Positions 6,135-46,792 of a stretch of DNA of 64,000 nt are shown one piece after another. The DNA comes from Promethearchaeota archaeon (GTDB lineage: Archaea; Asgardarchaeota; Lokiarchaeia; Sigyniarchaeales; SOKP01). Below the pieces are notes generated by a model, which worked only from the letters and a program-made list of their open reading frames with translations, was not told the origin of the DNA and made no database searches. The position numbers and the translations under genes were made by a program. Numbering within the stretch: the first letter of the stretch is position 1; each line of letters begins with the position of its first letter. The stretch is taken from NCBI GenBank assembly GCA_019058365.1, contig JAHPZE010000004.1:96001-160000 (forward strand). The letters are read 5' to 3'.

Positions 6135-6238
6135 GCGCGGGTGGTCTAGTGGCATGACGACAAGTATTTTACATATCGCATCTACACCGTTAAACGCTCA
6201 CACCGTGTAAATCAGGGGTTCAATTCCCCTCCTGCGCA
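6135..6238 (+). tRNA. tRNA-Val(CAC) with a 32-nt intron at non-canonical position 28/29 (6162-6193)
   Basis: Acceptor GCGCGGG/CCTGCGC-A, T arm AGGGG-TTCAATT-CCCCT; removing 6162-6193 restores anticodon arm ACACG-CT-CAC-AC-CGTGT. Confidence 0.88.
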
Positions 6239-33285: not shown

Positions 33286-33555
33286 GTGATGCAAAAAATG
33301 TGTAATAATTGTAATTGTGAAGCATATGACCAATGTTCCATTGTTGGTTATATGCCAGTTGGATTCTGCTGTACCAAATGCTATCTTTACAACGAGCAAC
33401 ATACATGTTTAGAATCGAGGTCAAAGGGAAAAGCTTCTAAGGTTGAGCCTGTGAGCGCCAAAATCGAGGATGGTGTTTTGAAAGTTGTCGTTATGAAGGA
33501 TAAAAAAGAAGTTCCTTTAGTGATTGACTTAGATAAACAATTTGGTTCTGAATAG
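33286..33555 (+). CDS. small Cys-rich hypothetical protein
   Basis: CNNCNC...C...CCTKC...C N-terminus. Confidence 0.7.
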   Translation: MMQKMCNNCNCEAYDQCSIVGYMPVGFCCTKCYLYNEQHTCLESRSKGKASKVEPVSAKIEDGVLKVVVMKDKKEVPLVIDLDKQFGSE

Positions 33556-33615: not shown

Positions 33616-33699
33616 AAAGGTCAGCTCTCTGATACCTCCTTGAAGAAGGGTTGAACAGTGATTGAGGTGAGTATTCAACGGAAAGGGTCAGGGAACTGG
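33616..33699 (-). repeat. copy 1 (most diverged, promoterless) of the structured RNA element
   Basis: Shares CTCCTTGAAGAAGGGTTGAACA, ATTGAGGTGAG and TCAGGGAACTGG with 42342-42424 and 44052-44134. Confidence 0.9.
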
Positions 33700-34020
33700 T
33701 GGTAGAATTGTGTGTTCAAGTAATTCGGATTTATAAGAGAACCTTTTACCCTCAATAAGAAATTTGGAAATATGTAATTGATTCTATTGAAAAGAAAAAA
33801 AAATGAAAAATTTAGCTTTTTTGATCTGTTTGTGTTGATTTTTACTTGATTGAAAATTATATAGACAATTGCTTAATATTTAGGACAGATTTTTTCAAAA
33901 TTGCTATTATCAAATTATCTTTATCTAAAGATCCTTAGCCCTTTTAGAGATTCTTGTTAATATAAAGATTTTAAAAACTCTTTGAGTGATTAAATTTATA
34001 TATAATAAGGTTATATAAAT

Positions 34021-34424
34021 ATGTTAGAGATCATAGCTAAAAATTCAGAAAAATTTACAAAAGATTATGGGAAAAGGATTTTTGCAAAAGATGAGGGAAT
34101 TGAAGTTGATTTACAAATTAATAATTTAGCTGACTTCAAGTAGCCTTCAAATTTGAAATGGTGGCATCCTCTAGCCCCAATATAAAAAAAATCGAAAATC
34201 TTGAAACTCTAACAAATTTAGAATATTTAAGACTTAATAGGGGAAGAATCTCAAAAATTGAGAATCTGGAAAATCTTACGAACTTGAAGTTCTTGGATCT
34301 TAGCATCAACATTATCTCTGAAATTGGAGGGTCGGAAAGTCTCAAGAACTTAAAAGTTTTACGATTTGGGAACTCATTTGAGTTAAGTGGAGAAAATGTT
34401 ATTAAAGAAATTGAAGGAGCATGA
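34021..34424 (+). pseudogene. frameshifted, truncated SDS22-like LRR gene (paralogue of 37574-38362)
   Basis: ATG 34021 frame stops at 34143; LRRs continue in another frame; LRFGNS..GENVIKEIEG resembles LLFGDG..GGNPISEIRG. Confidence 0.65.
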
Positions 34425-34512
34425 TAAAAGATCCTAAGATTTCTTTTTCCTAACAAAGTAAATCTCTCTATCATTAACGTTTTTAATATCAACAATGACT
34501 ATTTATATTCGA

Positions 34513-35004
34513 TTATGCCCTCTCTCTGTCTTTTTTTTCTACACTCAATTTAAAAATTTTACCTAATTTATAATCAAGGTAAAGATTCCTTCTTCTCAGT
34601 TCTTCACTGTTAGCGAATATTATCTTATCGAGAGATTCTTGACTTAGATTTAGGAGTTGTTTTAATTTTTCTTCTGTTATTTCTGATACTGTTTTAAAAA
34701 TCTCATACATATTATCAATAGCTTCTTTCTCAAAGTTATTCAGATCTCTTAAAAATTTAACGTCTTTTAATTCAGCAATTAATTGCCTTCTTATCCCCTC
34801 AATATCAATATTTAACTTTTCTTTAATCTTTTCTGAATTTTTATTAATGTACCTCTTAATGATTTTGTTAGCATAATAGCTTAATGAAACATCTTTTCTA
34901 TCACATATTTTTTTCAAAAGAATATATTCAATTTCATCCATTCTCACACTTAATACCTTTTTCTCCCTTACTTTTTCATCGTCATCCTGACTCATATTAC
35001 TCAT
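34513..35004 (-). CDS. ribbon-helix-helix (CopG-like) domain protein
   Basis: KVLSVRMDEIEYILLKKICDRKDVSLSYYANKII pattern. Confidence 0.6.
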   Translation of the reverse strand: MSNMSQDDDEKVREKKVLSVRMDEIEYILLKKICDRKDVSLSYYANKIIKRYINKNSEKIKEKLNIDIEGIRRQLIAELKDVKFLRDLNNFEKEAIDNMYEIFKTVSEITEEKLKQLLNLSQESLDKIIFANSEELRRRNLYLDYKLGKIFKLSVEKKDRERA

Positions 35005-35401
35005 TATGGAGATCTTTTAAAATTAGTAATTTAATTTGAAAGTCATAATATTTCATTAATTATATTATAATCATTTTGAATTAATTATTTATATTTAACG
35101 AATCATTTTGCATCAAACTTTTATAATTCTGTTAGCTTTAATTATTTAAATAAAAAAGAAATTAAATTAGTTAATAATTCGTTAAATTACAGGGTATTAA
35201 AACAGAATTTATAAATACTATAGATTTTTATATTAAGCTTTCTCAATTTCAATCGAATATAAAAAAACATATTAGAAATAAAACTGTCGGAACAATAAAG
35301 CTAAAAAATTATGAATAATTTTAAATAATTAGTACATTATTTAGAACTAAAAGAGTCTATGGGTATTTATTATAAATATTACTAAAAAAACGGTTTAGGT
35401 C

Positions 35402-36094
35402 ATGTTAAAAAGAATGAGAATACCTGAAGATGATTTAAAAATATTAGAAAAATTTGTTCAACTACCATCTGAGCAACAAGATTTCATTTTACAAGAACTT
35501 ACGGAAATTTCTCCAACAACTCCATTAAATATTATTGAAAAAAGAATCTCAAATAAATCGGACTACAAATTTGAAGATATCCATGAATTCTTTAAATTTT
35601 TAATCAACTTCTACATAAACTTCTTCTATTTTAAAGACTCAATTGATAATTTTAATGAGGAAGTTATTATACCTTCAATCATTCTACACAAATCAAAATT
35701 GAAATTAGCAGAACAAGATTATGAAAATATTAAATTAGTATCAGCAAAAATTTTAAGTTTAGATAAAAATATAGGGATAATATCAAAAATACCATATTTA
35801 TCTGAGGAAAATCCAAATAACTATATGAAATCTCATATTATTACGGATTTAAGATATATTTTTTATAACGATCCTAGTGAAATTCCAGATTATGCATTGA
35901 TAAAACATACTTTTAAGATTGATTATATTAAATCAAGAAAAATAGAAGAAGCATTTTATACTTTAAATTTAAATGATATAATTGAATTGAAAAAAAATAT
36001 TGAAAGAGCGATTGAAAAAGAAGGCTCGTTAAAAGAATTATGTAAAAAAAATAAAATAAATTTATTAAAAGAGGAGGATGTCAATGGATTATAA
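35402..36094 (+). CDS. hypothetical protein, candidate prokaryotic COMMD-like
   Basis: Helical N-domain plus C-terminal three beta strands and a long helix (ITDLRYIF..IKHTFKIDY..FYTLNLNDIIELKKNIERAIEK). Confidence 0.5.
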   Translation: MLKRMRIPEDDLKILEKFVQLPSEQQDFILQELTEISPTTPLNIIEKRISNKSDYKFEDIHEFFKFLINFYINFFYFKDSIDNFNEEVIIPSIILHKSKLKLAEQDYENIKLVSAKILSLDKNIGIISKIPYLSEENPNNYMKSHIITDLRYIFYNDPSEIPDYALIKHTFKIDYIKSRKIEEAFYTLNLNDIIELKKNIERAIEKEGSLKELCKKNKINLLKEEDVNGL

Positions 36095-36497
36095 AACTAT
36101 CAATGAATCTATCTATAATTTAAAAGATTTAAGAATAGGAACTTTAGATATTTGGAGATCAATTTCCGAAACTAATAGAAATATCAAACATACAACAAGT
36201 GAAATACTAACATGTAAAAGTTATAAAAATTCAGAATCAATAAACGAAAAAGTAGATGTTAATAAAAAAGAAAATGATGATTCAAACCAAGATTTTCCAA
36301 TTCTGAAACCAGATAATCAAGAGCTCGTTAAAAGATATGCTGGAAAATATATTGGAATCATCGAAAATAAACTTGTTGCTGTCGATACAAATATCCGTAA
36401 ATTAAAAGAAAAGGCAAAAAAGGTAATGAAAAAAGGTCAACGATGTTATATTGAATATATTGATGATGGTGTTTCAATATATGGACTTGGTATTTAG
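36078..36497 (+). CDS. DUF5678-domain protein
   Basis: KRYAGKYIGIIENKLVAVD...YIEYI. Confidence 0.7.
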   Translation: MSMDYKTINESIYNLKDLRIGTLDIWRSISETNRNIKHTTSEILTCKSYKNSESINEKVDVNKKENDDSNQDFPILKPDNQELVKRYAGKYIGIIENKLVAVDTNIRKLKEKAKKVMKKGQRCYIEYIDDGVSIYGLGI

Positions 36498-36957
36498 ACA
36501 AGAAGAAGCAATAATAAAAGAAGATCGTTTTAAAGATGTAACACCCCAAAAAAGGAAAGAATTTGGGAATTCATCTAAGTATAGAATTAATTTAATTTTT
36601 AAGAAAAATTCAGATTGGGAAGAAGAATTTCCTGTTAAATTTAAATTTGACACAGGAGCTTTTCTTTCTTTTGCTCCAAAGAAACTAATGGAAGATTTTA
36701 GTATCCCAACAGAATTTAGTATGGAAGTTACAGGTATACATCCTGAAAAAAAATGTCGTGTTTTAGTTAAAATCGGAAAAATGCTGTTTAAAATATTAGA
36801 TGATAATGAATTAGAATCCGATGAATTTGAAGCATGGTTTGCATTTCACCCTTTTGAAAAAGGAATGCATTTACTTGGAATGAAAAGTATTATTGAAGAA
36901 ATCGAGTTTCATCAAGATCCTAAAAGAAAAATTTTAATCTTAAAAACAGTTCAATGA
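36481..36957 (+). CDS. clan AA (retropepsin-like) aspartyl protease
   Basis: FDTGA catalytic motif and LLGM; start overlaps the upstream gene. Confidence 0.8.
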   Translation: MDLVFRQEEAIIKEDRFKDVTPQKRKEFGNSSKYRINLIFKKNSDWEEEFPVKFKFDTGAFLSFAPKKLMEDFSIPTEFSMEVTGIHPEKKCRVLVKIGKMLFKILDDNELESDEFEAWFAFHPFEKGMHLLGMKSIIEEIEFHQDPKRKILILKTVQ

Positions 36958-36972
36958 ATTTTTGAAGATTAA

Positions 36973-37509
36973 ATGATCTAATTAAAGACAAAAGATAAAG
37001 GAAATAACGTAATTTATATTTCAATAAGTCGAGATATTTTTATCTTAAGTATTTCATTTTCAATCATATTTCTCATTTTAGAGTTTGTTAAAGATTTATT
37101 TGATGTCGCTTTTATTAATCTAAATTTCACTCCTTTAATTGTAGGAGGTTCAGTAATCAATTTATCCATAATATTAATTTTTATTCTAATAAAAGGAAAT
37201 AAAATGAATGGTTAAAATCCGAAGAGAGACGATTAGAAACTTGGATATTTTTCTTATTAGCTATTTTGGTTGAATCCATATTAAATATAATTTTAACAAC
37301 TGTTAATATAATATTATCATTTTCTTTCGGGAAATTAATCAAATTTCTTATACTAATTTCAATCATAGTATTATCTGCATTTTATTTTAAAAAAAATGAT
37401 ATTTAAAGGAAAAAAAAATAAAATCAAGGAATTTTTTCACATTTATTTAATTTTACTAGCTCCTTGGATTATTGAGATTGGAGTAATTTCCGATTTTTCT
37501 CACTTTTAG
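36973..37509 (+). pseudogene. degraded multi-pass membrane protein gene
   Basis: Consecutive hydrophobic segments spread over shifted frames with internal stops. Confidence 0.45.
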
Positions 37510-37573
37510 AAAATCTCTAAGTTTTTGGGGCACTTAAATTTAAATATGAAGGTTTTATATAGATATCTTTGGA

Positions 37574-38362
37574 ATGATGGATGAAAATTCAAAAGAATAT
37601 GTTGTTAATCGAGGAAAGAAATATTATGTTGAGGATAATAGGTTAGACCTAACTAGTAAGACAGATATTGTACTTTCTGAGGTGGAAGGGCTCGAAGATT
37701 TAGTAAATCTGGAGGTGTTATCTCTCAAGGAGAATAGCATTCATGAGATTGAGAATCTTGAAAACCTTACGAGCTTAAAGGCTTTAGATCTCAGCATGAA
37801 CTACATTACTGAGATTGAAGGTCTTGAAAGATTAACGAAATTAACAAGTTTATTATTTGGTGATGGGGATGAAGGTGGCAATCCTATATCAGAGATTAGA
37901 GGACTTGATACGCTAACGAGTTTACGATATCTATACTTCGATTCTAACGAAATATCAGAGATCAAAGGGCTCGAAAATCTTAAGAGTTTGGAGTTCTTAA
38001 GTTTATTTGATAATAAAACTTTAGAGCTTAAAGGTCTTGAAAATTTAACAAACTTAAAGAAATTAATTCTAAGCAATAATAAGATTACGAAGATGCAAGG
38101 GCTAGAGACTCTTGGAAAATTAGAATATTTGGATCTATCATATAATAATATAGTAGAGATTAAAGAACTTGAAAATCTAATGAATCTAAAAGAATTGGAT
38201 TTGAGTTATAATAAAATTTCAGAAATTAAAAGGATAGAGCATCTAGTGAATTTAGAGAGATTTAGCATTTATGATAATCCGATTAGGAGGATCTCAGGGA
38301 TTGATTCTCTAAAAGGGCTAAGAATCTTTGGAATAGATAAGCTTTTACAGGACGACCAATAA
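37574..38362 (+). CDS. SDS22-like LRR protein
   Basis: About 9 LxxLxLxxNxIxEIxGLE repeats. Confidence 0.9.
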   Translation: MMDENSKEYVVNRGKKYYVEDNRLDLTSKTDIVLSEVEGLEDLVNLEVLSLKENSIHEIENLENLTSLKALDLSMNYITEIEGLERLTKLTSLLFGDGDEGGNPISEIRGLDTLTSLRYLYFDSNEISEIKGLENLKSLEFLSLFDNKTLELKGLENLTNLKKLILSNNKITKMQGLETLGKLEYLDLSYNNIVEIKELENLMNLKELDLSYNKISEIKRIEHLVNLERFSIYDNPIRRISGIDSLKGLRIFGIDKLLQDDQ

Positions 38363-38437
38363 AGATTAACGAATAATTTATTTAAGTGATCGTAAAAACC
38401 ATAATTAAAAGAATTTTATATGAAATTATTTATTATA

Positions 38438-39733
38438 TTAATGGAAAATATGTTCAAGTATCATTCTAAGATTTTCTATCTCTTTTATAAGCAATTCTTC
38501 TTTTGGTATTAATTTATAATTATGTGTTCCAATATCTCCCAAAGAGATCAACCTTTTTGCTTGTTGCATAAAAGTTTTATTAATAAAGTTAAGATCTTGT
38601 GCTATTTTTGGTATCTCTTTGAGACGTTTATATTCACCCTCCTCATTCTTATATTTATCTAATTTGTGTTCCTGTTCTGCCTTAAGATAAAATGCAGCTT
38701 CAATGATTTTTCGCATTAGAATTTGTGTCGCAACCTTACAATCATGATTATATACAGTTTCAAGTTCATAAATTAGGTTTTTTATATCTTTTGGCATCTT
38801 TTTTTTATCTGAATCATCAAAAAAATATATAAAATCTCCGGGATATTTTTGAGGTTTCTTAATTTCTTTATATAAATCAGAATCTAATCTTAAATCTAAC
38901 TCGAAAATAGAGAGATTTAACATTATTTGCAAAAAAATAAATAGCTGTTCAATTGATTTGCGATCATACTTTAACCAACTTCTTAAAAAATTAGAAATTG
39001 CAATTTTCCCGAGTTTATATAATTTATTTTCCTCAATATTAAATCTTTTTAATAAATCTATATTAAATGTGATTACTTCAAGTGTTTCCAAATCATCAAT
39101 CCTTTTTTCGATTAATCTCTCTAAGATTAAAGTTAACCTATTACTTTCATCTTTGAAATACTTGATATCATCATATAAGTCTGATAGAATGAGTTTTATC
39201 AATAAATAATGAAGAGTTTGTATAAATTCAGAATTTGAAAAATTTTCAAGGATATTGGCTTTTTTTAATTCTTTATTACATCGATCATTTAGTTTAAGAA
39301 TCATTAATCTATCCTTCTCAAGCTCCATCTCCTTAATTTGATATACTAAAAAGACGTATTTTAAATAAATAATACTATTAAAATCATGTTCACTAAAAAT
39401 TATATCAATTAAATCCATTAACATTGAAAACAAATCAGAGGAATTAATTGTTTCATATTTGTTTAAATATCTTAAGCAATCTAGTCTATGATTTAAATCA
39501 TCTTCTAGATGCGTTTTAAAAGGTTGTTTCAACGAAGATGTTAAGGATTCAACTAAATCTGTATCTTTAAAGTTCTGACCAATTATGTGATGCTTATCTA
39601 CGTTTTTTATTATAGAATATAGAAATGGATTCTCTAAAAAAATAGAAGTTTCATTAATTTTCGTGACAATATCTATATCATTTAGTAGATCTAACAAAGA
39701 AACATCAATATTATCAATTCTAATTCTGTACAT
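38438..39733 (-). CDS. Argonaute-associated protein with C-terminal DUF4145/HEPN-like domain
   Basis: ATQILMRKIIE...LISLGDIGTH pattern; ATG overlaps the Ago stop codon (TAATG). Confidence 0.7.
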   Translation of the reverse strand: MYRIRIDNIDVSLLDLLNDIDIVTKINETSIFLENPFLYSIIKNVDKHHIIGQNFKDTDLVESLTSSLKQPFKTHLEDDLNHRLDCLRYLNKYETINSSDLFSMLMDLIDIIFSEHDFNSIIYLKYVFLVYQIKEMELEKDRLMILKLNDRCNKELKKANILENFSNSEFIQTLHYLLIKLILSDLYDDIKYFKDESNRLTLILERLIEKRIDDLETLEVITFNIDLLKRFNIEENKLYKLGKIAISNFLRSWLKYDRKSIEQLFIFLQIMLNLSIFELDLRLDSDLYKEIKKPQKYPGDFIYFFDDSDKKKMPKDIKNLIYELETVYNHDCKVATQILMRKIIEAAFYLKAEQEHKLDKYKNEEGEYKRLKEIPKIAQDLNFINKTFMQQAKRLISLGDIGTHNYKLIPKEELLIKEIENLRMILEHIFH

Positions 39734-41148
39734 TATAAAAACCAAGGTGTATTTTTCAAATTATCATGAGGTTTTATTTCATACTTACTGAATTTTGCTA
39801 TTTGATGGGCAAATATTAAAGATGCTGGTAACCGAAGTTCATTATGAGTAACTGTTTGATAGTGAAGTCCTGTTAGTGTAAATATATCTTGGCAAGCATC
39901 ATAAAAAGACCTATAACAATCCTTATTTATTCTCATATTTATTAATAAAGGGCGAGGAGTGCCCATTTCATGAGGTTTAGATCTGATTTTTCTTGCTCTT
40001 GCATAATTATAATCTCCAGTTGTACATAGATATCCAAAAACTTCACTTAATTGAGAACAAATACCTCTGTCTATATTTTTATTCATTTTATCTAAATTAA
40101 AAGATCTTAGAATGTTTTTATCGAATATCTCCACTAAACAATAATTCCTTATACTTGTATCTTTAAATTCCTTCTCAAATCCCGCAAGTTCTTCTTTTCC
40201 AAATACTCCTAATTTTTGAATTGTTAATTTTTCTATTGGATTTGAACTCCTTTCTTGATGTGAGAATAATGTCTCATGGATGATTTTGCGAATTATGATA
40301 TTAGGTACAAATAATCCTGAAGTAGTCATTTTAAAATCATCTTTATGGAGTTCTAATTCCATATCAAAATAAGTATTTGAATAATAACCCATAAACCTTC
40401 CAATATTGTTGAATATTGAAACAAAACCAGTGGTATACCCTCTTTCTTCATTTCTAGAAAATCTAATAGCAAGTGTAATATCTACATTGTGAGGGTTTTT
40501 TAGTAACCAGGGAATACCACCTGCTTTAGAATAAATCGAAATGCAAATGTTCCATAAAATATAAGGCAAACCTTTAGAATCACTAATCTTTGTTAAGACA
40601 CCCCCATAAGTATCTCCTTGATAAAGTGAGAGATATTGTATAGGATAACCCATTTTGAGACAAAGTCTTTTTAGTTTATAATAATTATTAGTATTTCTTA
40701 TTGCTCTATAGTCTTTTCCTACTGCTAATACAACATATTTTGTGTTTACAGGCTGTTTTTCTACTGGATAAATACTTGCTAATTCATTAATTATAATATC
40801 TTCTCTACCATTTTCATAGATAATTACATCTTTCTTATCTTTAGGGATATCCAATTCATCTAATTTGAAAAATGTCTTTAATCCATGAAAATATGTTCCA
40901 TATCCATTTTTTATATAATTGAGTAATTTTAGTGAATTATCTATCGCAGATTCATCTTTCAAGCAGATAAGAATTAATTTTAATTTATCAAATAATCTAA
41001 TTTTAGCGTTAAAATCATATGGGCCAAAATTTTGAATTCCTTCCATAGCGTCATTTATTTTTTCTCGTTGACCTGTTTGAAATAAAAGATTTGGTTCAAG
41101 AAATTTAACAATTTTTTTTGATTTTAAATAACTCGTTTGAATTTGCAT
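39733..41148 (-). CDS. ago: MID-PIWI prokaryotic Argonaute, catalytically inactive (split/pseudo-short type)
   Basis: EPNLLF..GPYD, YYKLK..PIQ, N..IYSKAGGIPW, PRPL, RLPASLIFAHQIAK, terminal PWFL. Confidence 0.92.
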   Translation of the reverse strand: MQIQTSYLKSKKIVKFLEPNLLFQTGQREKINDAMEGIQNFGPYDFNAKIRLFDKLKLILICLKDESAIDNSLKLLNYIKNGYGTYFHGLKTFFKLDELDIPKDKKDVIIYENGREDIIINELASIYPVEKQPVNTKYVVLAVGKDYRAIRNTNNYYKLKRLCLKMGYPIQYLSLYQGDTYGGVLTKISDSKGLPYILWNICISIYSKAGGIPWLLKNPHNVDITLAIRFSRNEERGYTTGFVSIFNNIGRFMGYYSNTYFDMELELHKDDFKMTTSGLFVPNIIIRKIIHETLFSHQERSSNPIEKLTIQKLGVFGKEELAGFEKEFKDTSIRNYCLVEIFDKNILRSFNLDKMNKNIDRGICSQLSEVFGYLCTTGDYNYARARKIRSKPHEMGTPRPLLINMRINKDCYRSFYDACQDIFTLTGLHYQTVTHNELRLPASLIFAHQIAKFSKYEIKPHDNLKNTPWFL

Positions 41149-41152
41149 TGTA

Positions 41153-41854
41153 TTAGCATTCCCTCTCTTCTATGATTTTTTTAAAAGTCATTATTGTAAA
41201 ATCAAGATGATATTTTTTACCACCACAGAAAAACGAAATTTTAGATATTAAATTTTTAAAAAATACATAATCTTCAATCCTTTTAGACGATCTTGGTAAT
41301 TTTTTATCCTCAATTGAGGAATTAAATTCTACATCATAGATTAGATCTATAAACATATAGACTCCAAATTCTTCATCTACAAAGAATTGAAACTTAAACC
41401 CTACTATTGAATTCCCCAAATTAGGAATAAAAACAGCATTTTCTTTATATTCAACCTCACAATCAATTAAAGGTTCTCTACTTAAAGTACATAAAAATGC
41501 TTCTTTTAATATATTCGGGATAATAAGGTTTTTATAAAAGAAAGTGTTCTGAAAAGTGCAATTGTAATTTATTACTTCTAAATTTTCTAGTTCTGAATAG
41601 TTAATGTGATTAGGATTTAATAATTCCTCTGTTTTCTTAATAAAATTTGTAATAGATAAATCTTGATCAATTCTAAAAAACCATAGATCATCCAAAATTT
41701 GTGTAAATATTATTCCATTCTTACATAATTCCATTTTAACTCTATTATAATTATTAAAATTGCTTCTTGTTAAGCCGTCTATCTTCAAAGATTCTAACTG
41801 ATCAAAAACAGGACCATCTAGTTTAAATAAATCTAAAGCAATTTCTACAACCAT
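41153..41854 (-). CDS. Argonaute N-L1(-L2) partner subunit (AfAgo-N/Aga1-like)
   Basis: N-terminal IALDLFKL strand; L1-like GFKFQF...VYMFIDLIY; ends 4 nt upstream of ago. Confidence 0.65.
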   Translation of the reverse strand: MVVEIALDLFKLDGPVFDQLESLKIDGLTRSNFNNYNRVKMELCKNGIIFTQILDDLWFFRIDQDLSITNFIKKTEELLNPNHINYSELENLEVINYNCTFQNTFFYKNLIIPNILKEAFLCTLSREPLIDCEVEYKENAVFIPNLGNSIVGFKFQFFVDEEFGVYMFIDLIYDVEFNSSIEDKKLPRSSKRIEDYVFFKNLISKISFFCGGKKYHLDFTIMTFKKIIEEREC

Positions 41855-41992
41855 ATTATTATTGAACTTTATTAAATTGCGTTAAAATATTTTTATCTTC
41901 TTTTACTTAATAAACAAAATTGTAACGATTTCATTATTTAATAAAACTTATTATTTTCTGGTTATTTGTCATTCCAAAAATGAGGATTTAAA

Positions 41993-42309
41993 ATGGATTA
42001 GTTTAAAATTATAGCGAGGGTAGCAAAATTGGAAGAGTCTAAAATTTTTGACGAAGTTTTTGTTTTGGAATGTCAGTATCTCTTGTATAAAGTCACATCT
42101 TATTGAAAAGTTCTTAAATTTATAAAAGTAAAAATTACAAGTTAGTATCAGGTAATTCTATACTTATTCAAGAAAATTATGGTATTAGCAAAAGCACCGC
42201 ATCGCAATATTTGACTATTTTAGAGCACTATCACCTAATTAAAAGGTAGAGACACGGAGTAAACAAGATTATTAAAATATCTGATTTCGGTAAACTTTTT
42301 ATTGAGTAG
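41993..42309 (+). pseudogene. decayed winged-HTH transcription regulator divergent from the Ago operon
   Basis: YGISKSTASQYLTILEHYHLIKR*RHGVNKIIKISDFGKLF; several stops and a frameshift. Confidence 0.7.
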
Positions 42310-42341
42310 AGGTTTAAAAAATTCAGTTTAAGAAAAATTAA

Positions 42342-42498
42342 AAAGGTCGGTTCCCTGATATCTCCTTGAAGAAGGGTTGAACAGTAATTGAGGTGAGCAT
42401 TCATCGACGAGATCAGGGAACTGGAAAATTAATTAAGCGTTAATTAATGTAAAAAATTTATCAAAATAAAACAAAAATCTATGCGTTTTCTAAATACT
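42342..42498 (-). repeat. copy 2 of the RNA element with promoter region and orphan 3' end (YLENA*) of the 92-aa gene
   Basis: Ungapped 147/157 match to 44052-44208. Confidence 0.93.
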
Positions 42499-42523
42499 TT
42501 TTCTTGAATAGATTTAAAAATAT

Positions 42524-42591
42524 ATATTTTTAAAGAAAAAATTAGATTATTTAGAAAAAAAAAAGTTTTTTAAATTTAAATAAGGTATTAA
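42524..42591 (+). repeat. duplicate of intergenic segment 46648-46715
   Basis: Ungapped 58/68 match. Confidence 0.7.
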
Positions 42592-42618
42592 CCTAAATTT
42601 ATCAAATATTCAAACTTG

Positions 42619-43872
42619 TTATTTCCATTCCAGAGATTTTATAACAGAATCCATAATATGTACATAACGGCAGTAATCTTGAAATGTACCCTGGAAACCA
42701 AATGTAAACAGAAATTCTATTGGTTTCTTCAATGTTGGATGGATAAGAGTGATGCTATACTTTCTGGTCCAGTAACCCATCCAATATGTCAAGGCTAGTT
42801 GGCTAGCACCACCGTGAAAAATCAGGTGAGCACCCATAACTTCGGCATCCAATCGCGAAATATGCTTCTTTGAATAGTCCAACAGGGCATCATATAATTT
42901 TCTATCATCTGTGGAAACAATATCCATCGATTTGAACTTGGCCAGCTCGGATTCATCGATGCTGAAGTGTATATTCATATAAAACTTCTGTTTGGCCTTT
43001 TTAAATTTAATTTCGAGACCATTTCCGATTTCTCCCAGATAAGAGGTTCCTTTTTGTGTAATCTTCCATCCTGATGCATAGAGGGTAAAAGGGGCTCCTT
43101 TACAGACTCCTTCGAATTTAAATTCAGGTTTTGAGGGTATTATTTCGATTTTAGAAACCGCTGGTGCCACAGTCTTTTTTAAAAAGTTGATTATCTCATT
43201 TACATCGAACGTCTCTACCGATTTACATCCTGCAAGGGCAGGAAACTTTTGGTGAACTTCTGGTTCTGCAGGAATTTTGATTTCAACGATTTTGTCTTGT
43301 CCGTAATTTTGAAGCAACTTCTCAGCTTCATCAGAGCAATAAGGAGATTCTGCGTAAATTTTATTGGTGAATAATATAGCTCGTTCGGAATTAGCTAGTC
43401 CCTCGTCGATAACAGTCTGAAATTGACCGCGATCTTTCAATAAAATCCTATATTCAGCAAACCAGACGTTATAACCACTTGATATTAATTGATCAACGAT
43501 CTACCTAGCGATGTAAACATTCTGGCTTTTGTAACTGATAAAAAAATCGTATTTTTTGCCAGAAACCCCTGAAACTATTTTTTGTGAATTTTTATTAATA
43601 GAGTAATTGAGTTCCAGATTAAGGAGATATTGAACCAAATTCTTTTTCTTCATTCCGCCAGCAACTAGCAAAGGGGTATATCCATTTTTGTCCTTTGCGA
43701 AAATATCCGCACCTGAACCGACCAAAAATTTAGCTATTTCAATATTTCCATAGTATGCAGCTGCATGCAAAAGCGTGGATCCGAAATGGTTTCTTCTATG
43801 AATTATTTCCGGATTTTTGGCAACCATTTCCCTAATGAGTGAATATTGACCATCCCTAACAATGTCCCACAT
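42619..43872 (-). pseudogene. ankyrin-repeat/TIR fusion gene interrupted by one in-frame TAG (43501-43503)
   Basis: TLLHAAA/TPLLVA ankyrins; YDFFISYKS..AR*IVDQLISSGYNVWFAE..SPYCSDE TIR domain continues in frame. Confidence 0.85.
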
Positions 43873-44051
43873 AGTATCTATTAATCACCGGTTGATTCAT
43901 ACAATCATGAAATCTGAAACTATGATTATATTGAACATTTCTAAAAATCTAATACATAATAATGACAAAAATGTCTTTATACAAGATGTTCAAATATTTA
44001 AATCTAAATAAATATGATGTATCAATCACTCAAGAAGAAAAATAATAATAT

Positions 44052-44134
44052 AAAGGTCGGTTCCCTGATATCTCCTTGAAGAAGGGTTGAACACTGATTG
44101 AGGTGAGTATTCATGGACGAGATCAGGGAACTGG
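44052..44134 (-). ncRNA. putative ~83-nt structured small RNA (intact copy 3)
   Basis: 10-bp closing stem GUUCCCUGAU/AUCAGGGAAC, internal hairpins, upstream TATA-like box, downstream T-rich tract. Confidence 0.6.
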
Positions 44135-44137
44135 AAA

Positions 44138-44175
44138 ATTAATTAAGCGTTAATTAATATAAATAATTTATCAAA
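44138..44175 (-). promoter_or_regulatory. TATA-like promoter with overlapping palindrome ATTAATTAA-GCG-TTAATTAAT
   Basis: TTTATA ~23 nt upstream of the element on the minus strand; perfect 9-bp inverted repeat. Confidence 0.5.
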
Positions 44176-44188
44176 ATAGAAGAAAAAT

Positions 44189-44467
44189 CTATGCGTTCGC
44201 TAAATACTCATTTAGCACAATGTTTAAATCTACTTCTGAGTTCTGGACCTTCTTTAAGAGATGTCTGAGCCCATAATCATTCAATAATAACTCAATCAGA
44301 TTCTTATAAATTGCTGTAATATTATCTTTACCAGCTTCATAATAGAAATCATTCTTACTAAGAGTAAGATCCAAAATCTCATATAAGCCTTTTATGGCAT
44401 CCTTTATATTTTCGAAGTTTTTCTCGGCTTTTTCTTTCGATCTAATTTCATATTTTGAACTATTCAT
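44189..44467 (-). CDS. small helical hypothetical protein with strong RBS
   Basis: 92-aa ORF, GAGGTGA upstream of ATG; its 3' end is duplicated at 42479-42498. Confidence 0.8.
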   Translation of the reverse strand: MNSSKYEIRSKEKAEKNFENIKDAIKGLYEILDLTLSKNDFYYEAGKDNITAIYKNLIELLLNDYGLRHLLKKVQNSEVDLNIVLNEYLANA

Positions 44468-44751
44468 TCTAACTTACTCACCTCAATTAATATATGTAAA
44501 TGATCATATAAAAATGTGACGCTTTCCGATAATCTGTCCGACTCAAACCGAACACCTCCATCATGAAGATAGTCACTCTTCGGTGCAAATAATTAAATTA
44601 ATTGTTTTAAAGTAGTTACTTATGGATCAATCATTTATTGGTATGCCAAAATACATAAAAATAGATAACGAATATCGATTAAAAGTCGCAAAATCATTCA
44701 ATTAATATTGATTTTTGATCAGAAATACAAAAATAAAAATAAAAAATGTTA

Positions 44752-46248: not shown

Positions 46249-46792
46249 AAATATAATATTTTGTTCAAATTAAGTTCAGAAATAAAAATTAACAATAATT
46301 TAAGTTTAAAATCTTCTATGAAAATAAAATTAATCAAAATATTAAATTCTTTTTAAAAATAAATAATGAATTTTTGTAAATTAATCACCGTTATTCTAGA
46401 AAAACGTATAATGAATGATCATATTTGATGTATAGTACAAAAAGCCATTTAATTATTTTTTAATAATCTGGAAAAAATAGAATTTAATCTATTATATAAA
46501 AATCAAACCTAGACTCATCGTTTTTTAATAAAGGGATAATTAATTAATTTCTGTAAATATTTGGTAAAATCTGTAAAAAATTTGTAAGGAATATAAAAAT
46601 TTAAAAGTATAATCAATAAGAATTATGATACTTTGGATCAAAACTAAATATTTTTAAAGAAAAAAACAGATAATTAAAAAAAAGAAAAGTTTTTTGCTTT
46701 TAAATAAGGTGTTAATATAAATACAATTTATTTTAATTAATAAACAATAAATTTGAATAAAATACTAACAGGTATAATAATTATACCCTATT

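Follow-up and report, generated by a model that had tools for sequence, protein, structure and literature searches.

A candidate structured RNA with a loop complementary to the ribosome-binding region of its neighbouring gene, at a variable locus of a Lokiarchaeia genome

Masking of a ribosome-binding site by an antisense loop is well known in bacteria. Type I toxin-antitoxin pairs such as tisB/istR-1, zorO/orzO and shoB/ohsC have RNA antitoxins encoded next to the toxin gene without overlapping it, and in the hok mRNA the 3' fbi element folds back to pair with the 5' tac element. Genes of structured RNAs are also known in a second capacity, as tRNA and tmRNA genes are integration sites of genomic islands. 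To our knowledge almost nothing has been described of RNA-based regulation in Asgard archaea, and a literature search found no report of a small RNA with a defined target in this group. Among archaea, sRNA162 of Methanosarcina mazei provides an experimental precedent for a small RNA that masks a ribosome-binding site (PMC3510493).

Here we describe a locus in a window of 64,000 nucleotides (the whole stretch of DNA that was analysed), where a structured RNA and a gene for a 92-aa protein appear to form a module. [quoted passage not shown] What is new here is the RNA family, the host lineage, the tight tandem module of gene and then RNA, and a second role in bordering defence cargo. Since the masking mechanism is already well known, the value of the locus lies in the new family and in a first handle in this lineage, not in a new principle.

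Element copies and inserted cargo

An earlier note on this DNA, made from the sequence alone, had reported an element of about 83 nt at 33616, 42342 and 44052. A repeat search and an alignment confirmed that the window has three copies, each 82-83 nt long, oriented alike and sharply bordered, and a search of the whole 4.74-Mb assembly found copies at these three positions and no others. Each copy is followed by a T-run.

44052..44133, minus strand: RNA element copy 3 (primary), with an 11-bp outer stem (P1), an interrupted second stem (P2), an apical loop of ~30 nt, and an ACC tail plus T-run
42342..42423, minus strand: RNA element copy 2, full length, with a single G·U-compatible change in the anti-leader
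33616..33698, minus strand: RNA element copy 1, at the far border of the inserted region and adjoining the 89-aa ORF
42424..42598, minus strand: remnant beside copy 2, consisting of spacer and 92-aa gene end to 42498 and then, at 42516-42598, a copy of 46640-46722

Copy 1 is 87% identical to copy 3, and its upstream flank is of the type found in the related genome G003. Copies 2 and 3 have 160 nt in common at 93% identity (42339-42498 and 44049-44208), a repeat that spans the element, the upstream spacer and the final ~20 nt of the 92-aa gene. Next to it lies a second direct repeat of 83 nt with 83% identity (42516-42598 and 46640-46722), the source of which is the intergenic stretch upstream of a dehydrogenase-like gene. 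Its position beside copy 2 suggests that the whole unit of RNA, 92-aa gene and dehydrogenase gene may have been duplicated and its middle then deleted.

The syntenic order comprises four heterodisulfide-reductase-like/ferredoxin genes, the 89-aa ORF, the element or elements with cargo, the 92-aa gene and a dihydrolipoamide-dehydrogenase-like gene, and in all RNA-positive genomes the element is confined to this one site. Four relatives (G034, G148, G135 and G115) have one element copy in a gap of ~200 nt between the convergent 92-aa gene and 89-aa ORF. In relatives with at least two copies, the copies bound cargo that differs by genome. A full element copy always adjoins the 92-aa gene; truncated copies, which retain only the minus-strand 3' part, always lie beside the 89-aa ORF. 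This ORF is itself conserved across the genus (47-97% identity) and is without a family match. In the window the cargo between the copies amounts to 10.5 kb.

33286..33555, plus strand: 89-aa ORF, convergent with the module, on the far side of the insertion site
33699..42341, strand mixed or unspecified: cargo block 1, with LRR genes, a DUF5678 gene, uncharacterised ORFs, and a Piwi-domain short Argonaute with two partner genes (putative)
42619..43872, minus strand: cargo block 2, with a TIR-like 273-aa ORF and an ankyrin 123-aa ORF, head to tail

Within block 1, co-oriented minus-strand genes of 233, 471 and 435 aa occupy positions 38438-41854. For the 471-aa protein a Piwi domain is weakly indicated (E 1.6e-4 in Pfam, E 1.6e-6 for argonaute in NCBIfam), which suggests a short Argonaute operon. 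The TIR-like/ankyrin cassette of block 2 is also found between RNA copies in G031 (L038:10383-11633). In G003 there are four tandem units with a spacing of ~1.3 kb (L039:5098-10362), in each of which an LRR gene is accompanied by the 3' end of a 92-aa-like gene and by an RNA copy, a series that looks like the product of repeated unequal crossing-over; an additional, inverted RNA copy lies at 18094-18177 of L039.

As at the integration site of a genomic island, direct repeats bound the cargo and an empty site exists in relatives, and the copies are arranged as they would be after cargo had entered the 3' part of a small RNA gene, in the manner known from tRNA genes. Because the repeat of copy 2 runs into the 92-aa gene and then into the copy of 46640-46722, the arrangement points to homology-driven capture, or to duplication followed by deletion, as the probable route of insertion. 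The three copies in this genome are therefore best read as a by-product of cargo insertion and not as three working units. The earlier description of a triplicated unit does not hold in this respect, as only copy 3 adjoins the target gene and the other two mark borders of inserted cargo. In five genomes the locus contigs gave no match to the tyrosine recombinase family PF00589, and the cargo ORFs have no Pfam match of this kind either. The stem ends of the element misfit the R''/R' core of an integron attC site (RYYYAAC ... GTTRRRY), and the cargo, being multi-gene, on both strands and without a detected tyrosine recombinase, does not have the form of an integron cassette array.

The bordering of variable cargo by the copies, the single copy at the empty site in relatives and the invariable position of partial copies on the side of the 89-aa ORF would also be explained if the element acted in DNA only, as an attachment or recombination site or as a homology landing pad. 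One DNA-binding protein would then recognise a single motif both in the element and at the promoter of the 92-aa gene, hence the match to the leader. We consider this unlikely: the search of the locus contigs for tyrosine recombinases found none, and the stems and the conserved loop extend far past the needs of a crossover site. The reading preferred here, a structured RNA acting on the adjacent gene, draws on the module itself, its fold and its loop.

The gene and RNA module and its fold

44189..44467, minus strand: 92-aa gene, presumed target, encoding a soluble three-helix protein of a multi-copy family

The 92-aa protein is charged and hydrophilic, has no membrane segment and is modelled with confidence as three helices (pLDDT 89). 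Searches in Pfam, NCBIfam, Foldseek against PDB and the ESM Atlas features gave no usable match. As the protein is hydrophilic, helical, without a membrane segment and of no known family, the label of a type-I-like toxin-antitoxin system, which had been proposed for the locus earlier, has no support, and a toxin-antitoxin reading is therefore only a possibility. In a variant of the explanation at the DNA level, the 92-aa protein might be its own regulator and read both the promoter and the element motif; against this stands the model, which has no recognisable DNA-binding fold. The protein family is present in 118 of 135 genomes, in multiple copies. Its public relatives all originate from Lokiarchaeia-type (Asgard) assemblies and are all unannotated, and a search for partner genes conserved around the paralogs returned lineage synteny only.

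A survey of 135 genomes of the taxonomic family, in which BLAST was combined with a covariance model derived from 23 copies, detected the RNA in 27, namely in 24 of 54 genomes of the window's genus (own genome counted) and in 3 of 42 of a second genus. Close orthologs of the 92-aa gene (at least 70% identity) occur in 24 genomes, every one of them RNA-positive with the RNA adjacent after the stop codon on the same strand; three further RNA matches are weak or at contig ends. Over all distinct modules (35 of 35) the RNA lies on the strand of the 92-aa gene, 20-80 nt past its stop codon. Metagenomes, with 71 loci, give the same picture: all orthologs of at least 77% identity with enough flank carry the RNA, and ~45 paralog loci (at most 61% identity) carry it in no case. 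Downstream of these paralogs there is also no sequence complementary to their own leader. The distant genus members G006 and G002 have the same neighbourhood, with the dehydrogenase gene followed directly by the 89-aa ORF, and are without both parts. By this comparison of genomes, gene and RNA are thus adjacent and are present or absent together.

In the three genomes of the second genus the syntenic locus is complete. A horizontal transfer of the module into this genus was considered and rejected, since here the similarity of the flanking housekeeping genes (80-91%) equals that of the module; these contigs may have been assigned to the wrong bin.

Comparison of the copies also yields a consensus fold of the minus strand, with an 11-bp outer stem (P1), an internal loop and a second stem (P2) of 3+5 bp with a bulge. 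The distal part is an apical loop of ~30 nt, near-invariant in its 5' part and variable in its 3' part, and the 3' end consists of the ACC tail and then the T-run. In P1 and P2 together 92% of cells are paired, compared with 27-52% when the partners are slid. Double changes occur at four pairs, a count reached by 107 of 500 shuffles; the observed share of paired cells and the covariation score are matched by 9-11 of 500. The co-variation within the stems is thin because the sequence of the element is highly conserved.

For copy 3 the minimum-energy fold has -24.5 kcal/mol (z -3.5) and includes an inner 8-bp hairpin. The minus-strand fold put forward in the earlier note is thus recovered as the minimum-energy fold of this copy, but the inner hairpin exists in the closest relatives only and the conserved fold differs from it.

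The copies that adjoin the gene (primary copies) have 31 G·U cells against 14 A·C, and inside their P1 the numbers are 23 and 2; copies 2 and 3 of the window have one A·C near the stem end. This balance favours the minus strand, which is the sense strand of the gene, as the likely RNA strand, in agreement with the earlier assignment. An RNA of the plus strand was rejected: it folds equally well in this genome, but across genomes most G·U pairs would become A·C. The same asymmetry, together with the wobble-compatible single changes in the loop described below, fits pairing of RNA better than a site that works only in DNA.

Several close relatives contain a truncated variant of the RNA beside the 89-aa ORF (L043:4645-4720, L038:11753-11828, L045:7011-7086 and L052:2168-2243). 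In this variant the 5' strand of the stem is swapped for another sequence, which pairs further 3', so that a closing stem is retained; the anti-leader is degraded.

The element matches no Rfam family at gathering or permissive thresholds. With Rfam 15 at gathering thresholds the window contains one tRNA only, located elsewhere, and at permissive thresholds the region 43950-44250 gives chance matches only (RUF1 with 16.7 bits, gathering 70, and sR3 with 9.5, gathering 41). ARAGORN and the Rfam tRNA model found no tRNA or tmRNA at the element. The Rfam tRNA spans 104 nt on the plus strand (6135-6238, 43.4 bits), was missed by ARAGORN and is probably an intron-containing archaeal tRNA.

Complementarity of loop and leader, and transcript signals

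44097..44109, minus strand: RNA loop segment (anti-leader), with an 11-nt core kept in all modules
44475..44487, minus strand: leader box with the Shine-Dalgarno sequence of the 92-aa gene, complementary to the RNA loop

The two segments form an exact 13-nt inverted repeat, as had been claimed for the ribosome-binding region of the 92-aa gene. This 13-mer occurs three times in the genome, compared with 0.2 occurrences expected: once each in copy 1, in copy 3 and in the leader of the gene. Copy 2 has one transition in its anti-leader that can still pair as G·U, and its exact 13-nt match is kept with an offset of two bases; in this form the claim that all copies keep the match is correct. The heptamer GAGGTGA is not enriched genome-wide (244 sites, 197 expected), so the inverted repeat is not just a common ribosome site. 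The duplex of loop and leader has a computed energy of -21.6 kcal/mol, compared with -10.5 ± 2.5 for shuffled loops. The 3' end of the 16S rRNA of this genome is GGAUCACCUCCU, and it has seven nucleotides, UCACCUC, in common with the RNA loop, which therefore corresponds to a copy of the anti-Shine-Dalgarno sequence with gene-specific flanks. Every ortholog has in its leader the Shine-Dalgarno core followed by conserved extra bases, and every RNA loop has the complementary 11-mer.

Co-variation was followed on a tree of the coding sequences, in 35 distinct modules from related genomes and metagenomes with 23 combinations of leader and loop. In G148 and G135 a change of G to A in the leader is met by C to U in the loop, and their clade includes a sister sequence with the G·U intermediate. 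In G034 a change of U to C in the leader is met by A to G in the loop. Four more single changes in the loop are all G·U-compatible, and the nine internal pairs of loop and leader are free of disruptive changes among the 35 modules; the terminal pair is lost in three lineages. The leader has changed only twice, both times in a way that by its kind breaks pairing, and both changes are compensated, which is the strongest evidence that loop and leader pair as RNA. Complementarity beyond chance and its maintenance by compensation, as expected of a masked ribosome-binding site, are thus both found, and the antisense relation of loop and leader suggested in the earlier note is borne out across genomes.

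44506..44513, minus strand: TATA box of the 92-aa gene, in all orthologs, ~21-23 nt before the leader box

The spacing between TATA box and leader box is 21-23 nt in orthologs and paralogs alike. From this spacing the 92-aa mRNA is predicted to start at or just before the complementary box, at ~44484, and the RNA would therefore pair with the extreme 5' end of the mRNA. A position of the motif at or near the predicted transcript start would also suit a protein that binds to DNA, and one protein that reads both sites could cause changes in the same sense that mimic compensation.

A broader role of the RNA appears improbable. As a general regulator or sponge, its loop would act on many mRNAs with strong ribosome sites or compete with the 16S tail, and the neighbouring gene would be one target among others or a hitch-hiker. 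The heptamer common to loop and 16S end and the 244 GAGGTGA sites would suit such a role; the conserved match, however, exceeds the Shine-Dalgarno core, no leader but that of the 92-aa gene has the full 11-13-mer, the loop co-varies with this leader, and the RNA is found only where a close ortholog of the gene is present. Elsewhere in the genome the leader box has just one 10-nt match (C50:29450 in G000, outside the window). It was rejected as a second target, as it heads an ORF of only 26 codons; the match sits 4 nt (TAGA) ahead of an ATG.

44134..44188, minus strand: spacer between gene and RNA, with T-runs right after the stop codon, a TATA-like box and a palindrome

Under the preferred reading of an RNA that masks the leader of its neighbour, the transcript could arise in two ways. 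The spacer contains a TATA-like box (44156-44163) 22 nt before the outer stem and a palindrome (44139-44157) overlapping it; both had been pointed out earlier, together with the T-rich tract after the copies, and all are present. The box is kept in the closest relatives only, and other lineages have no clear box. T-runs directly after the stop codon are found in most loci, and one metagenome locus has just 20 nt between stop codon and RNA. The T-runs between gene and RNA argue against simple co-transcription; in view of the patchy box, the 20-nt gap and the T-runs, both an independent RNA and the 3' UTR of a read-through transcript are possible, and for this genome a separate small RNA with its own promoter is somewhat more likely. 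The minimum-energy fold of a full transcript of gene and RNA has no fold-back contact, which is weak evidence either way.

Two sediment metatranscriptomes (X1 and X2) were searched as contigs, in small shares and without strand information. Contigs covering the 92-aa gene are found in both runs, and none bridges 44112-44198, so that the runs speak neither for nor against co-transcription. One run contains a single 101-nt contig of a variant element copy, strandless as well. This contig, from X2, corresponds to window positions 44055-44111 and consists of two partial element copies joined through 14 other letters, so that it goes back 57; it may come from a relative with tandem copies or from an RNA that is rearranged or circular. 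Contigs of both runs, which belong to different studies, end at the same position, 44473, which lies 6 nt upstream of the ATG and 2 nt away from the predicted edge of the duplex. The assembly may break off at this point, the transcript may be processed there, next to the duplex, or the mRNA may really begin there; in the last case the complementary box would lie outside the mRNA, as a weak hint only.

It is very unlikely that the element is a plain terminator or spacer without regulation, with the leader match as a relic. The element does sit between convergent genes and has a stem followed by a T-run. Archaeal termination, however, requires T-runs only, several of which are already present between the stop codon and the element, and neither an invariant 11-nt loop nor compensation with a site 380 nt away is expected of a terminator. 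A MITE or other dispersed repeat, which the 11-nt terminal inverted repeats and the three copies in the window might call to mind, can be dismissed, as three copies in 4.74 Mb, at a single locus, in one orientation, at a constant syntenic site in relatives and without target-site duplications are not what such a repeat leaves.

Proposed mechanism and comparison with known systems

We infer the following course of events, with the RNA ends, transcription, repression and the mode of insertion predicted from the comparisons above. A minus-strand RNA of ~85-90 nt would be transcribed from a gene directly downstream of the 92-aa gene and fold into a long interrupted hairpin, the large apical loop of which would display the 11-nt mimic of the 16S anti-Shine-Dalgarno sequence with its gene-specific flanks. 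The partner of the loop would be the ~11-13 nt with which the leader of the 92-aa mRNA begins, a stretch that holds the ribosome-binding site. Pairing would exclude ribosomes from the mRNA and possibly also alter the stability of its 5' end. The RNA locus would in addition attract foreign cargo, each insertion adding a full or partial copy, and in this way three copies would have accumulated here. A further, rather doubtful thought is that the pair is an RNA-controlled addiction or toxin-antitoxin-like module, the RNA gene of which doubles as an integrase-free landing pad for defence islands with short Argonaute, TIR and LRR cassettes and gains a copy with each capture.

The locus offers a compact testable pair, with one structured RNA, one 11-nt contact and one small target gene, and natural compensatory variants of the contact between loop and leader already exist. 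As a recurrent insertion point for defence genes, the small-RNA locus also aids the reading of variable islands in Asgard genomes.

In comparison with the tRNA and tmRNA integration sites, the locus likewise has a structured-RNA gene at the border of variable islands and full and partial direct repeats around the cargo; here, too, it is the 3' part of the RNA that the partial copies retain, and the empty site is seen in relatives. It differs from them in that no tyrosine integrase was found, the RNA is not a tRNA and some of the repeats reach into the neighbouring gene.

The hok mRNA is similar in that an element on its 3' side is complementary to the region of the ribosome site and to the extreme 5' end in the mRNA of the same gene. 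Unlike in hok, T-runs part gene and element at this locus, the computed fold of the full transcript shows no contact, and neither a leader ORF that overlaps nor an antisense RNA like Sok was observed.

With the type I pairs the locus shares a short gene next to a small RNA, a limited complementarity (~11-20 nt) to the mRNA leader, and a patchy distribution of the two-part module in a variable genomic region. The 92-aa protein is hydrophilic and helical, whereas type I toxins are typically small membrane peptides; moreover, the RNA lies in tandem downstream and is neither divergent nor overlapping, and the host is an archaeon.

The comparison with sRNA162 concerns the mode of action. In both cases an exposed single-stranded segment pairs with the ribosome-binding region of an mRNA and is expected to repress translation, for the present RNA on the strength of sequence comparison. 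Sequence and structure of the two RNAs are unrelated. In contrast to sRNA162, the pairing segment would here be an apical loop that mimics the 16S tail, and the target would be the directly upstream gene on the same strand, with which the RNA is jointly gained and lost.
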